Below are positions 4,162 through 33,260 of a DNA stretch of 37,745 bases, one piece after another. Position numbers and translations under genes: made by a program. The DNA is from a virus (Duplodnaviria > Heunggongvirae > Uroviricota > Caudoviricetes), in the IMG/VR virus record IMGVR_UViG_2541047874_000005; one strand, given 5' to 3'. The notes beneath the pieces were generated by a model that was given only the letters and a program-made list of their open reading frames with translations, ran no database searches and was not told where the DNA came from. Each line of letters starts with the position of its first letter. Position 1 is the first letter of the stretch.

Positions 4162-5210
4162 GAAATCGTCCCCAGAACCGCCAGCTCATTTTTCGCAATG
4201 GAGATATTGTCCACCGGTGCAAACAACTGATGGCTGTATTCCCCGTTCGCACCGGAAATCGCCTCACTGATACGCGATACCTTCAGTTCTCCCTGCGGAT
4301 AACCATCACGCAGCAGGAACGAACGCAACTCTGCGGTAATGGCAGCCCGTATTTCTGGTGTGTCCGGCGTCACGCGGATATGAAAATCCACCGTATGTGC
4401 CACCGGCCTGAATACATACAAATCAGAGCCTGCCACCGGGGCCAGTGGCTCAATGTGTTGTCTTGCCGCCGTTTCCGTTGATTCTTCCGGAATGGGATTA
4501 ATCAGGTCACTGCTGGCAATCATCACACCGACAGTTCCCGTTCCCATCCAGTGACGGTATGTCCATGCGCGGGTAATGCCTGGCACTTCTTTAGCCCAGA
4601 CAACATAGTCCCCGTCAGCCCCGCCCTGAGGCGTCCAGTAATACCGCTCAATGACGCGGGCGCGCCACGTTTCCAGCTCTTCAGTATCAAATCCACCTGT
4701 CAGGGTATCTGCCACGCCAGAAGACGGCAGACCATTAACCGGCGTGACCAGGATTAATGACGTACCGTCGTCAGCGTTACCGACCGCGCCTGCACTTGAG
4801 CAGGCGATCGGCACGCGCAGGACACCACCGGAGCTGGTTGCATCGGCAGTTGCCGTGTACTGAACCAGGTCATCGCGCTGAATAACACTCCCGGCAGTCA
4901 CCTTCAGGCCATCGCTGACACCTTCCCAGCGCATATACCCGCTGGCAGCCGTGCCCCCCTTGCGCGGACACCGTTTCATCGCAGCATGTCGCGCCAGCCA
5001 GGACTCATCGCACAGGTCAGGCAGCATGTTCATTGCCAGATAATCGATGTACCCGTAAACCGTATGCAGCGCCGCCGCATACACCTTTGCCCGCACGTCT
5101 TCATCCATGCGCCGGAGCGTGTCGCTGACGTCCAGCCTGGCGAATAAATCGTTACGGAGCATACTGATATTTTCTGCCAGCGTCGGGCGCTGAAATTCAC
5201 TGTCCGCCAT
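4152..5210 (-). CDS. Baseplate J-like protein (Mu gp47-like)
   Basis: 352 aa; size and position in the gp45-46-47-48 order of Mu-type baseplates. Confidence 0.75.
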
Positions 5211-29592: not shown

Positions 29593-29825
29593 GCTGCACC
29601 TCCGAGATGCTTCATGTTTTTTCCGGAGCGAAAGGCTATAAGCGGCATACTGACGCGGTAATTACGGCCCAGCGGTTCACAAACCACCTTCTGACATTCA
29701 CGGTCAACCAGGCTAACACGTAGAACATGCCCTGCAGGCGTGGTGTACCACTGCCCAACTGTAGGAATTGATGTTTTTTTACGCTGAAGTAAACGGCGAA
29801 TATTGAGGCTCAACAGATTAAGCAT
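29589..29825 (-). CDS. Small hypothetical protein
   Basis: 78 aa ORF with start/stop overlaps to both neighbours; basic. Confidence 0.4.
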   Translation of the reverse strand: MLNLLSLNIRRLLQRKKTSIPTVGQWYTTPAGHVLRVSLVDRECQKVVCEPLGRNYRVSMPLIAFRSGKNMKHLGGAA

Positions 29826-30654
29826 GACGATGCCCTCCGCTGATATTCAGGAGACGGTGAATATGAAAATTAGCCTTATCCGCCAGACGAATACGTTCAG
29901 CCTGCAAGTTAAGAAGGGTTTCTACCAAAACCTGATGCGCCTGCGGATCCGAAAGAGTTACCTTGCGCAGAGCACGTAGTGCAGTTGTTACATAACTGAG
30001 TTTATGTAAGTCTTCATCATTCAGACGAGTGAGGGCTGGGACAGTAGCCATGATGGCAGCCTCCTTGATCGGTGAAATACTTCCACCACCGGAAACGCCA
30101 ATTTCGCTGGTGGTGAACTGAACGGGGTTGGCGTAACCGGTGATCAAGGAAACCGGCGCATCTTTCGATGCCCCCGCCCAGCCCACCATAACTTTGATGT
30201 GAGCAAATGCGGACGATAAAAAAGACGCTGGCGCGTCATATATCGCCTTGATCAATTCCAGGACGCCAATCCCGGCACCCGCTTTATAAGGTGCCTGAAC
30301 AGTGTAACGTCCCGGAATGGCAGAATCAATGTGCTGGTGGTCCTTCACACTCAACAAAATCACGCCTGAATTTCCACAAAGGACTAAAGCACTCATGCGG
30401 GTAGTCTTTGCGAAGATAGATAACGCGCTGTGTTTCTGGCTCCCAACGAATAACATGAACATAAAGTCCTCTTCCGTCACGAAACCAGCGGTTAAGTTCC
30501 TGCACAACTCGCCCCCCACAGTCAGGTAAAGTTCTCTGTGGTTACTTACAGCCAGGTGATTTGGTAATCTGCATTCATGCCGTAACAACAGGTGTTCAGC
30601 GACACTGACCACCAGCTGTTGCGACAAACGGTTATTTGCCGTTAAACTGTTCAT
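29818..30654 (-). CDS. Hypothetical early protein
   Basis: 278 aa; between CII-like and replication genes; no Walker motif; no family recognised. Confidence 0.5.
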   Translation of the reverse strand: MNSLTANNRLSQQLVVSVAEHLLLRHECRLPNHLAVSNHRELYLTVGGELCRNLTAGFVTEEDFMFMLFVGSQKHSALSIFAKTTRMSALVLCGNSGVILLSVKDHQHIDSAIPGRYTVQAPYKAGAGIGVLELIKAIYDAPASFLSSAFAHIKVMVGWAGASKDAPVSLITGYANPVQFTTSEIGVSGGGSISPIKEAAIMATVPALTRLNDEDLHKLSYVTTALRALRKVTLSDPQAHQVLVETLLNLQAERIRLADKANFHIHRLLNISGGHRHA

Positions 30655-31214
30655 GCGTTAGTTTCTCCACAGACACAAAACGCCACGACGCCCGGAGCTG
30701 CACACTCGCGGGCGTCACTCTTTTCTGGAGCGCAAAAGATTTTGTAGACCAGTGCTGCATGCTCCTGGAGCTTCGAAATTGACAGATACAACTCATCATT
30801 AATTGCTGTCTGCTCGTGTGGCTCCACTACCCCATCTTCGATTGCCGAACGAATCTGCTTTGAGTAACTCCCGATCTGTTCGATGACTTCCAGCAGGCGC
30901 TGGTTTATATCGGCGTTCTCTACTTCCTCAATTTCAGGAAGCGATACAAACACCCCACCAGCAGACTGTGCGACAGCATCCGCAATGTAGTGAGTGCCAG
31001 CCGCGCGCTGTAAAATCATTGCCCATCCCAGCGGGAAAATCTGATCGCCATCTGCACGAAGGCGGTTGAATAAAGCGTTCTCTGTTACATCCAGCCACTC
31101 AGCAGCTTCAGCGTAACCCCCCGGCAACGCCGCGATAGTTTTTCTGACAGCTTTCACGTACCACTCAGGCTGTTTTTCTACTTTCCAGTGATGCTTACCC
31201 ACGGTTAGCCTCAT
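30651..31214 (-). CDS. Putative CII-like regulatory protein (tentative)
   Basis: 187 aa, first gene after cro-like; family assignment by position and size only. Confidence 0.4.
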   Translation of the reverse strand: MRLTVGKHHWKVEKQPEWYVKAVRKTIAALPGGYAEAAEWLDVTENALFNRLRADGDQIFPLGWAMILQRAAGTHYIADAVAQSAGGVFVSLPEIEEVENADINQRLLEVIEQIGSYSKQIRSAIEDGVVEPHEQTAINDELYLSISKLQEHAALVYKIFCAPEKSDARECAAPGVVAFCVCGETNA

Positions 31215-31536: not shown

Positions 31537-32211
31537 ATGAAAACAGTCCATGACATCCGGCGGTCTAACGCCAGAAAACTGAGAGATGGTGTTGGCGGGA
31601 ATTCTTCCTTTGCCACCATGATTGATCGCGAGCCAACCCAGACCAGCAGGTTTATGGGAGATGGTGCTACTAAAAATATCGGTGACAGCATGGCACGGCA
31701 CATCGAAAAATGTTTCGACCTGCCTGTCGGATGGCTTGATCAAGAACACCAGACAACAAACATCACAAAAAAACCTGATGTTTCAATTACTAACAAACAA
31801 ATAACGTTAGTCCCTGTCATATCATGGGTACAGGCCGGAGCATGGAAAGAAGTTGGCTATTCTGAGGTTGATTTGAGCACAGCAGAAACTTATCCCTGCC
31901 CTGTACCCTGTGGCGAAATGACTTATATCTTGCGGGTGATTGGTGATTCAATGATTGATGAGTACCGCCCGGGAGACATGATTTTTGTTGATCCCGAAGT
32001 CCCTGCCTGCCACGGTGACGACGTTATTGCATTGATGCACGATACAGGCGAAACCACCTTCAAGCGATTGATAGAAGATGGAACACAGCGTTATCTCAAA
32101 GCATTAAACCCAAACTGGCCTGAGCCTTACATTAAGATTAACGGTAATTGCTCTATAATTGGTACAGTAATTTTCTCAGGAAAACCAAGAAGATACAAAA
32201 TAAAGGCCTAA
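31537..32211 (+). CDS. cI: CI-type prophage repressor with S24 (LexA-like) autopeptidase domain
   Basis: 224 aa; C-terminal VIGDSM...GD...K and a QAG cleavage-site-like motif; N-terminal HTH-like region; divergent from cro. Confidence 0.85.
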   Translation: MKTVHDIRRSNARKLRDGVGGNSSFATMIDREPTQTSRFMGDGATKNIGDSMARHIEKCFDLPVGWLDQEHQTTNITKKPDVSITNKQITLVPVISWVQAGAWKEVGYSEVDLSTAETYPCPVPCGEMTYILRVIGDSMIDEYRPGDMIFVDPEVPACHGDDVIALMHDTGETTFKRLIEDGTQRYLKALNPNWPEPYIKINGNCSIIGTVIFSGKPRRYKIKA

Positions 32212-32222
32212 TCAATATTTAT

Positions 32223-32246
32223 AACCTGCTTCGGCAGGTTTTTTTA
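32223..32246 (+). terminator. Rho-independent terminator after cI
   Basis: ACCTGC-TTCG-GCAGGT hairpin followed by TTTTTTT. Confidence 0.7.
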
Positions 32247-32249
32247 TAC

Positions 32250-32286
32250 TTGACAATGTACCCTTGAGATACATAATGTATCTCAA
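32250..32286 (+). promoter_or_regulatory. PL-like early-left promoter with palindromic operator
   Basis: TTGACA (32250..32255), 16 nt spacer, CATAAT (32272..32277); perfect palindrome TTGAGATACAT-A-ATGTATCTCAA (32264..32286) overlapping the -10. Confidence 0.6.
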
Positions 32287-32760
32287 AGAAACATGCCACA
32301 GGCAAGATTAAACAAAATTTGGTTGTAACACGGCGTATGGCACATGCGTCGTTAGCGGTCTGGGGACGTTAAAGGGGACAATCCACTCCTTGCTCGGGCA
32401 AACAAACCAGGTAGCCGGAATGTGCAAGTCAATGATGATGCTGATAAGACGCCTAACCAGCGTGGCGGTTCGGTTTGACACCTGGGAAGAGACCAGGGTG
32501 CAACGATGAGGGCATTTATGGAACCGCGACAAAGTGTGGTGCCGTAACTGGCTAAGTGCTCTCAGCGTTGTGGTGAATGCGCAGGCTGATGCGCGAAAGA
32601 CATTGCAGCTAATGCGGAAAAGAGCTGTTCGGCGGGGCAATTAAACGCCCGTGAGAGTCTGAAATAACCGCAAGCCGGAGATCAGCACCGGTCACCACAA
32701 CAGCCACTGCTTTGGCGGTACCAGTTTGTACACTTGCTTCCGGCTGGTACCGTCCTTTTT
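32287..32760 (+). ncRNA. Candidate noncoding leader/sRNA from the PL-like promoter, ending in a DicF-like hairpin
   Basis: No ORF over 29 codons on + strand across about 450 nt after the promoter; terminal segment CTTTGGCGGTACCAGTTTGTAC resembles my recollection of the DicF core. Confidence 0.3.
32714..32760 (+). terminator. Strong intrinsic terminator hairpin (tL-like / sRNA 3' end)
   Basis: GGCGGTACCAG (32714..32724) pairs with CTGGTACCGTCC (32744..32755), 11 bp with one G.U, followed by TTTTT. Confidence 0.6.
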
Positions 32761-32897
32761 ACAAAACAGAGAAGAGCATCACCGGACGACGGGCTCATAA
32801 CCCAATCCATCCGGGCGGCTGCCACCGCAGGTGTTCTTCTCTGTTTTGTGGAGAAACTAATCGGCCTTGCAGGGTCGATATGATGAGGAGCAGCAAA

Positions 32898-33260
32898 ATG
32901 GCTAGCGAACGCAGTACTGATGTGCAGGCATTTATCGGGGAGCTGGACGGCGGCGTATTTGAAACCAAAATCGGCGCAGTTCTCAGTGAAGTCGCTTCCG
33001 GTGTGATGAACACGAAAACCAAAGGTAAGGTCTCACTCAACCTGGAAATCGAACCATTTGATGAGAACCGTGTGAAAATCAAACACAAACTCTCATATGT
33101 TCGCCCGACTAACCGCGGGAAAATTTCCGAAGAAGACACCACCGAAACGCCGATGTATGTCAATCGCGGTGGTCGCCTGACTATTCTGCAGGAAGACCAG
33201 GGACAATTACTGACTCTTGCCGGTGAACCTGACGGAAAACTCCGCGCAGCAGGTCATTAA
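32898..33260 (+). CDS. YfdP-like hypothetical protein
   Basis: 120 aa from ATG at 32898 (AGGAG RBS 7 nt upstream); same length and position as yfdP in the K-12 CPS-53 yfdPQRS cluster (recalled). Confidence 0.55.
   Translation: MASERSTDVQAFIGELDGGVFETKIGAVLSEVASGVMNTKTKGKVSLNLEIEPFDENRVKIKHKLSYVRPTNRGKISEEDTTETPMYVNRGGRLTILQEDQGQLLTLAGEPDGKLRAAGH

Follow-up and report, generated by a model that had tools for sequence, protein, structure and literature searches.

RNase III sites are known from the N leader of phage lambda, from between the early genes of phage T7 and from around 16S and 23S rRNA. The enzyme accommodates about 22 bp of double-stranded RNA and cuts intramolecular stems (PMC6212723). 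In the Qin prophage, the small RNA DicF is matured by RNase III as well as RNase E from a polycistronic transcript, and RNase III processing of the dicBF transcript yields a 190-nt DicF whose 5' end the enzyme creates (PMC10448788). Another small RNA, sRNA-17, has been published as a 193-nt RNA of E. coli K1 strain RS218, with its primers and RACE design given in Table S2 of that work, and was reported to affect the survival of meningitis E. coli in blood; its authors reported no Rfam homologue and drew no link to DicF (PMC7719688). We describe a conserved RNA module, acting in cis, that a lambdoid prophage carries in its early-left (PL) transcript and in which a long helix, P1, closes a three-way junction at the border between sRNA-17 and the early-left mRNA. 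Tentatively, and with slightly less than even confidence, we propose that P1 serves as a processing helix for RNase III, whose cleavage of read-through transcripts would part the sRNA from the early-left mRNA.

The window (the whole stretch of DNA analysed, 37,745 nt) is a lambdoid prophage, whose + strand here corresponds to the 'leftward' early operon (PL). The 1.1 kb around the element are 91-99% identical to phages cdtI, Ayreon, mEp460 and 2H10 and to Stx2a/2c/2k converting phages. A PL-like promoter, overlapped by a 19-nt operator palindrome (palindrome 32256-32294) and matched by an annotated promoter at the corresponding place in phage Ayreon, is the presumed source of the element-bearing transcript, and a leader of about 610 nt lies between it and yfdP (Table 1). 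No N-like gene was seen in this prophage. For the related phage LLS, which has no N, the authors suggested put-type RNA antitermination (PMC12315714). A put-like stretch at ~32325-32400 (+), ~40-115 nt into the PL transcript, resembles HK022 putL (ACGGCG...CAUGCGUCG..AGCG...CAAU...GCUC), and the motif was found in 26 fetched loci, Kosakonia included; judged from this resemblance, the stretch, if functional, would account for terminator read-through in a phage without N.

Table 1. Features of the early-left leader and of the RNA element, with the related copies in phage tRNA arrays (L numbers denote collected loci).
Feature	Position	Strand	Description and basis
LexA/cI-type repressor gene (ymfK-like)	31537-32211	+	
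Terminator of the repressor gene	32223-32240	+	
PL-like promoter	32250-32277	+	TTGACA-16-CATAAT, 11/12 matches in promoter scan
sRNA-17	32566-32758	+	starts CGUUGUGGUGAAUGCG, ends in the terminator U-tract; primers of PMC7719688, Table S2
Upstream intrinsic terminator	32714-32760	+	GGCGGUACCAGU.../...GCUGGUACCGUC followed by UUUUU; stem 32714-32726 with 32742-32754; predicted folds
P1 5' strand	32756-32780	+	closing helix; 32756-32760 is the U-tract of the upstream terminator; MFE fold
P2 arm	32782-32814	+	CCGGA/UCCGG outer helix, GA/UC, GGG/CCC, 7-nt loop CUCAUAA (32794-32800)
P3 arm	32815-32828	+	GCGG/CCGC (32815-32818 with 32825-32828), loop CUGCCA
P1 3' strand	32830-32854	+	ends GUGGAGA, paired with the terminator U-tract
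Small hairpin	32860-32879	+	8 bp, UGCA tetraloop; 3' of the element and 5' of the yfdP ribosome-binding site; predicted folds
yfdP SD and start codon	GAGGAG 32885-32890, ATG 32898-32900	+	sequence; RefSeq annotation of a 99%-identical locus, strain HS13-1
yfdP	32898-33260	+	followed by yfdQ (DUF2303) and yfdR
tRNA-array copies of the core	L037:2508-2580, L038, L054, L059, L093, L097, L105, L107, L113, L125, L149, L152		

The leader appears in other contexts as well. Parts of it (~32317-32494 and ~32555-32700, the hairpin not included) also occur on ~90-kb E. coli plasmids, all 484 places lying on plasmids; these are possibly phage-plasmids that share put-like or STnc100-like modules. A GUUGUGGUGAAUGCG...CACCACAAC module resembling Rfam STnc100 below its threshold (35.1 and 34.1 bits; E ~1e-5) lies upstream of the DicF-like sRNA in ST64B (L162:1303-1421) and downstream of dicF in Qin (L036:2447-2587); leader modules have been shuffled. 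The PR operon carries a C4 antisense RNA (30106-30193 (-), 82.3 bits) in tandem with isrK (30218-30294 (-), 64.2 bits), both inside a mechanically called 278-aa ORF (29818-30654) in which the Ash domain begins only after them. The ORF is probably an artefact, and the two RNAs likely regulate an Ash/antirepressor-type gene. The two early operons also share an exact 14-mer, TGTGGAGAAACTAA, at 32847-32860 (+) and 30658-30671 (-): the PL copy forms the end of P1 and is kept across genera although no start codon follows it, and the PR copy lies in the ribosome-binding region of an Ash-family gene, the gene after the cII-like gene, where folding of the surrounding RNA gives no significant structure (z -0.5).

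The original prediction for this leader was a long-range inverted repeat with 17-nt arms complementary at 16 positions. Both arms are present with that match, CAAAACAGAGAAGAGCA at 32762-32778 and TGTTCTTCTCTGTTTTG at 32832-32848, the second lying one base to the right of the 32831-32847 first given; the sole mismatch is a G-U pair in RNA (G32776-U32834). A repeat search of the window returned a longer repeat, with 25-nt arms at 32761-32785 and 32825-32849; only four local inverted repeats in the window reach 15 nt, and this one is the longest. Folding of 32755-32855 as RNA, which had been suggested as a check, pairs the two P1 strands over 25 bp, five of them G-U, and places within them the arms P2 (32782-32793 paired with 32801-32814) and P3, with A32781 and A32829 unpaired in the junction. 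The minimum free energy is -51.2 kcal/mol, compared with -25.45 +/- 3.3 kcal/mol in 200 dinucleotide shuffles, none of which is as stable (z -7.8). The element ranks with the most stable of the 3012 windows of 101 nt slid along both strands (mean -26.0, sd 6.9), and folding of the whole 617-nt leader recovered its three-way junction unchanged. The predicted position also holds, the structure beginning in the U-tract of the terminator and stopping 43 nt ahead of the yfdP ATG. The inverted repeat is thus real, yet it is only the base of a conserved three-way junction that had gone unseen, as had the copy of a tRNA anticodon stem-loop in the inner arm.

Is the structure maintained by selection? 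Loci were gathered through the YfdP protein, one genome per species, and a motif scan of viral contigs added more, giving 67 distinct element sequences in total, nearly all folding alike. Among the loci gathered through YfdP, the same fold holds the matching position in Shigella, Mangrovibacter, Enterobacter, Atlantibacter, Leclercia, Superficieibacter, Phytobacter, Kosakonia, Scandinavium and Pseudocitrobacter. In an alignment of 42 diverse sequences, RNAalifold recovers all three helices, and 98.4% of the cells are standard pairs; column shuffles give 92.6%, and sliding the partner by one to three columns leaves 41-60%. Compensatory changes on both sides occur in 12 of the 34 pairs (five in P1, four in P2 and three in P3) and involve 70 cells where 15.8 are expected; none of 500 shuffles reaches any of these measures. 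The conservation and covariation by which the repeat was to be judged are both present. The inner 18 pairs of P1 are 99.2% paired, five of them with two-sided changes; four of the six pairs of the P2 outer helix have changed on both sides, as have three of the four pairs of P3, an arm that ranges from 14 nt to ~40 nt in the homologues. The basal pairs between the U-tract and GGAGA (five in the window, four counted in the alignment) are always compatible and never covary. We regard them as plausible and take the alignment-supported helix as about 20 bp. The 3' end of P1 keeps GTGGAGAAACTAA(C) in nearly all homologues.

Two observations settle the strand and the level at which the structure acts. 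The alignment contains 148 G-U cells and seven A-C cells, and a covariance model built from it scores 112 bits on the + strand of the window and 37 bits on the - strand; together these show an RNA structure of the PL transcript, not a DNA palindrome. Since the inverted repeat adjoins a terminator, it could in principle be a second intrinsic terminator, a feature that acts as DNA (for example a cruciform, a site of recombination or a palindrome bound by protein), or a chance repeat, but we give this group of readings almost no weight. The second terminator that had been considered originally falls away, because the stem is followed by GAGAAACUAAUCGG, with no U-run, and is not called by the terminator scan. 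The 148-to-7 ratio speaks against a DNA element, and a chance repeat is excluded by the shuffles and the covariation.

Further candidates were rejected. A boxA/boxB/boxC reading of the P1 3' strand was dropped because the UGCUCUUU-like run on which it would depend is base-paired and covaries with the partner strand, being UGUUCUUC in the window and UGCCCUUU in eight sequences in which the partner changes along with it. An anti-SD reading of the pyrimidine-rich 3' strand, noticed by eye, failed in that other genera do not preserve its complementarity to the SD. Indels led us to reject coding potential on both strands: element lengths vary between 105 and 133 nt by amounts not divisible by three, so ORFs drawn across the element are not coding.

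The element is unannotated as an RNA, and gene callers draw spurious 'hypothetical proteins' over it. A 'hypothetical protein' or 'frameshifted' pseudogene is annotated over the sRNA terminator and the hairpin in two of the loci (L161:1320-1639; L001:4412-4606 and 4661-5041), and such gene calls are very likely false calls over structured RNA. Records titled Fredinandcohnia humi (a 240-nt contig, 100% identical to E. coli yfdP), Martelella alba and Chryseobacterium sp. (among L013, L016, L017 and L021) contain enterobacterial prophage sequence, probably through assembly contamination or mislabelling.

Two things appear to be under selection, the length of P1 and the sequence of the P2 apex, GACGGGCUCAU..CCAAUCC. 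P1 is 23-26 bp long in 64 of the 67 distinct variants, while its sequence turns over (CAGAGAAGAGCA, CACACAAGAGCA, CATGTGAGCGCA and others), and many variants from outside E. coli carry one to three 1x1 mismatches in it. Prophages of Providencia keep the long stem and its flanks with a different interior from which the inner core is absent, which indicates that selection acts on the long helix itself. Its constrained length, about two turns, points to a double-strand-specific reader. Of an RNase III substrate one would expect a continuous duplex of ~20-22 bp or more, and P1 offers 25 bp, 20 of them supported by the alignment. The experimentally mapped 3' end of sRNA-17 falls where P1 begins (PMC7719688). 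The long helix thus stands at the exact border between sRNA-17 and the mRNA, in a family of transcripts that is matured by RNase III elsewhere, in Qin. Among the three roles first considered for the repeat, namely a processing site, a second terminator and a translational control element, the constrained ~25-bp helix, its place at the sRNA/mRNA border and, by analogy, the RNase III processing of Qin DicF favour the processing site. On the other side, an alignment-supported helix of ~20 bp is near the lower limit for RNase III, and a processing role leaves the strict conservation of the inner arm unexplained.

From the structure and its strand, its conservation and covariation, the constrained length of the helix and its position at the sRNA/mRNA border, we infer the following sequence of events. 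In the lysogen, transcripts would stop at the terminator directly upstream and yield the 193-nt sRNA-17. When RNA polymerase reads through, P1 would form, with ~20 well-supported pairs and up to five weak U-tract pairs. Read-through is presumed to follow induction and to be carried out by terminator-resistant polymerase, possibly by way of the put-like leader RNA, which we invoke because no N gene is present. Host RNase III would then cut both strands of P1, severing the sRNA from the yfdP-yfdQ-yfdR mRNA, after which 3' exonucleases could trim the sRNA back to its terminator. The same cut would give the mRNA a new 5' end and excise the three-way-junction core, which is roughly the size of a tRNA.

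The same helix could also act uncut, as a passive structural insulator that prevents misfolding between sRNA and mRNA and could block 5'-end-dependent scanning of RNase E into the yfdP mRNA. The extreme stability of the element, its context-independent folding and its occurrence ahead of differing genes are what such an insulator would be expected to show, and the element adjoins an sRNA whose Qin counterpart is processed by RNase E (PMC10448788). Neither the 23-26 bp limit on the length of the helix nor the conserved inner loop is explained in this way. Moreover, near-perfect double-stranded RNA of at least 20 bp is unlikely to escape RNase III in E. coli. We therefore hold a purely passive role to be quite improbable and return to processing as the preferred reading of P1.

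How close is the upstream sRNA to DicF? The terminator had been called DicF-like; the strong hairpin and U-tract are indeed there, but the Rfam DicF model (RF00039) gives no match at E up to 10 in 32150-33000, whereas the same library scores 76.7 bits on Qin dicF. Common to DicF and the sRNA of the window are only UUUGGCGGUAyCAG and the terminator layout. Judging by its sequence, sRNA-17 is related to DicF only in architecture, and is loosely DicF-like.

A partial deletion of sRNA-17 raises yfdP reads ~96-fold (PMC7719688), and this result bears on another reading, in which the structure or alternative pairings act as a translational operator that controls ribosome access to yfdP. The element lies in the 5' UTR, 30 nt 5' of the SD, and P1 ties up the conserved GGAG of its own 3' end by base pairing, as one might expect of such an operator. 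However, the SD and the start codon, 30 and 43 nt 3' of the element, both fall outside the structure and are unpaired in the predicted folds, a separate small hairpin stands in between, and the module precedes unrelated genes, so that translational control in the direct sense originally envisaged is not borne out. Pairing of the sRNA seed with the yfdP initiation region, in cis or in trans, was suggested by the full-leader MFE fold and was rejected, being no better than shuffles across 20 loci. The yfdP rise in the deletion mutant may be a cis effect, and read-through out of the resistance cassette that was inserted would account for it. We consider a translational operator very unlikely.

Hairpins with (U/G)GCA(G) loops lie directly 5' of the ribosome-binding site in most of the homologous loci, ahead of yfdP homologues in many genera (L006-L031). 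A similar loop recurs as P3 in 19 of the 67 element variants, and another 15 of the 67 carry P3 loops with UCCUA or UCUCA, reminiscent of Arg anticodon loops.

The apex of P2 is where the element resembles a tRNA. The 14-mer CGGGCTCATAACCC (32790-32803) is identical at 14 of 14 positions to raw positions 29-42 of E. coli metY tRNA-fMet; it is the sole stretch of at least 12 nt common to metY and either strand of the window, and by our own calculation a 14-nt identity is expected ~0.02 times by chance. Three G-C pairs in the anticodon stem mark initiator tRNA, and the window shows the corresponding 7-nt loop with U33 on a G-C-rich stem (CUCAUAA on GGG/CCC). Most of the sequences came from a search pattern containing the P2 motif, which inflates the apparent conservation of that motif. 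The CUCAU motif is also present in 14 of 17 hairpin-bearing loci collected through the YfdP protein, and in nearly all relatives overall; its conservation is accordingly not solely an artefact of the pattern search. One locus, L029, has a different loop. Pairing of the anticodon-like loop with a target in the window was rejected, since matches to its complement there are at chance level.

Relatives of the core lie outside the leader. Both BLAST and the covariance model (positions 22-84, E ~1e-8) find the core junction in lambdoid phages of Klebsiella and in related ones. There it lies downstream of Q, with 5 nt between it and the final tRNA of an array (Asn, Arg-UCU, Thr, Phe, Met-CAU). These copies, ~71 nt long, have a 6-7-bp closing stem that is followed by A/G-CCA in 11 of 11 distinct copies; the variants L040 and L077 have closing stems of 5-6 bp followed by GCCU. 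At the end of their late-operon tRNA arrays, Klebsiella-type lambdoid phages hold an unannotated three-way-junction gene with a long CUCAUAA arm and a variable hairpin. The short stems of these relatives indicate that the extension of P1 by ~18 bp is specific to the mRNA-leader context.

It is conceivable, then, as the main rival or complement to processing, that function resides in the three-way-junction core as a mimic of tRNA with a CAU anticodon loop, and that P1 is only its stalk or excision device. Once released, the RNA would bind or titrate a factor that reads anticodon arms, or be a substrate for it, candidates being a tRNA-fMet-cleaving VapC-type toxin, another anticodon nuclease, MetRS, TilS or the 30S P site. 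The metY identity, unique in the window, the retention of CUCAU in almost all relatives and the occurrence of the core as a tRNA-sized gene with N-CCA in the tRNA arrays of Klebsiella and other phages all argue for mimicry, and enterobacterial VapC toxins do cleave initiator tRNA (PMC5175351). Several features argue against it. ARAGORN finds no tRNA gene in the window and none at the tRNA-array copies, and the Rfam tRNA model matches neither the element nor those copies at E up to 10. The element has no cloverleaf, lacking both D arm and T loop, and the copy in the window has no CCA, its 'acceptor' being a 25-bp stem followed by GAAACU. The core is absent in Providencia, the L029 loop differs, the mimic has no known binding partner, and the motif in the search pattern inflates the conservation cited in its favour. 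Mimicry as the main function therefore seems to us unlikely. A broader version, in which the element belongs to an undescribed family of minimal tRNA mimics in lambdoid phages of Enterobacterales, three-way junctions with a long arm modelled on a CAU anticodon stem-loop of the initiator, Met or Ile2 type, either excised from a 25-bp stalk or encoded as an NCCA-ended pseudo-tRNA gene and acting in trans, for example as a decoy for VapC or other tRNA-targeting defences, we would put forward as speculation of rather low probability. Processing at P1 remains the reading that we prefer for the leader copy.

The element is widespread. Of 5426 complete E. coli genomes, 2492 carry it, with 3321 places in all and as many as five in a single genome; phages SfV, SfII, SfIV, ST64B, cdtI and mEp460 and Stx2a/2c/2k converting phages have it too, and for the hairpin taken by itself SfV and SfIV match the window at 100% identity. 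The genes downstream vary and include yfdP, yfdR and others. E. coli K-12, the strain used for published RNase III maps, is without the element, its copy of the region beginning at window position 32879. Within the window, the covariance model finds no second copy, such as one in the PR operon that would parallel putL/putR or nutL/nutR. Rfam 15 gave nothing credible over the element, either at gathering thresholds or at E up to 10, its only match being a hairpin ribozyme on the opposite strand at chance level (14.5 bits, E 7.1). A literature search on the hairpin, on tRNA-like elements in lambdoid leaders and on links between sRNA-17 and DicF found no description of the element. We conclude that it is an undescribed element, a putative processing helix of a phage leader with an unprecedented tRNA-anticodon-arm core.

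If P1 is an RNase III site, it explains how the prophage sRNA-17 is uncoupled from the early-left mRNA, and the reported effects of the sRNA-17 deletion on yfdP need to be re-read. If the anticodon-arm mimic is functional, it would represent a new type of phage tRNA mimicry, alongside the phage tRNAs that serve as counter-defence.

Among described systems, P1 most resembles the hairpins cut by RNase III in the lambda N leader, at T7 R1.1-type sites and in the leader-trailer helices of 16S and 23S rRNA, with which it shares a long, near-perfect intramolecular helix of about two turns. Like the phage sites, it belongs to the untranslated leader of an antiterminated phage early operon, just 5' of the first gene, and, like the rRNA helices, it is built from the flanks of a structured RNA that cleavage would release. 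Unlike these hairpins, to which it has no sequence similarity, the element encloses a tRNA-like junction and abuts an sRNA terminator, and its cleavage is a prediction.

A parallel in operon architecture is Qin DicF, likewise an sRNA in a repressor-controlled early-left operon with a GGCGGUAyCAG... terminator. In Qin, too, a long-range helix of ~20 bp closes a multibranch structure between the dicF terminator and dicB, and the 193-nt sRNA-17 parallels the 190-nt DicF precursor, the 5' ends of both adjoining a GUUGUGG motif. Folds around these two 5' ends, computed in search of a shared RNase III stem, gave z -0.8 for sRNA-17 and -1.9 for Qin. The systems differ in that the mapped RNase III site of Qin lies upstream of dicF, not downstream, and in that the downstream structure of Qin resembles STnc100 (34 bits, below threshold) and lacks an anticodon-like arm.

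With tRNA-fMet the element shares CUCAUAA on three G-C pairs, and its tRNA-array relatives are tRNA-sized and occupy the slot of a tRNA gene; unlike a tRNA, it is without D arm, T loop and variable region, and the copy in the window is without CCA. Like the Y-RNA-like YrlA, the window copy joins a long stem formed by its 5' and 3' ends to a module that resembles a tRNA. YrlA, to whose Rfam model the element gave no match, mimics the acceptor/T/D part, however, whereas the element mimics the anticodon arm. Finally, HK022 put is a cis-acting structured RNA with two adjacent irregular stem-loops in the early-operon leader of an N-less lambdoid phage, a description that would fit the element equally well, although the element has no similarity to putL or putR and the put-like stretch of this leader lies elsewhere. 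Put has no closing helix and stands at the start of the transcript, ahead of the terminators that are suppressed, whereas the element follows its terminator.
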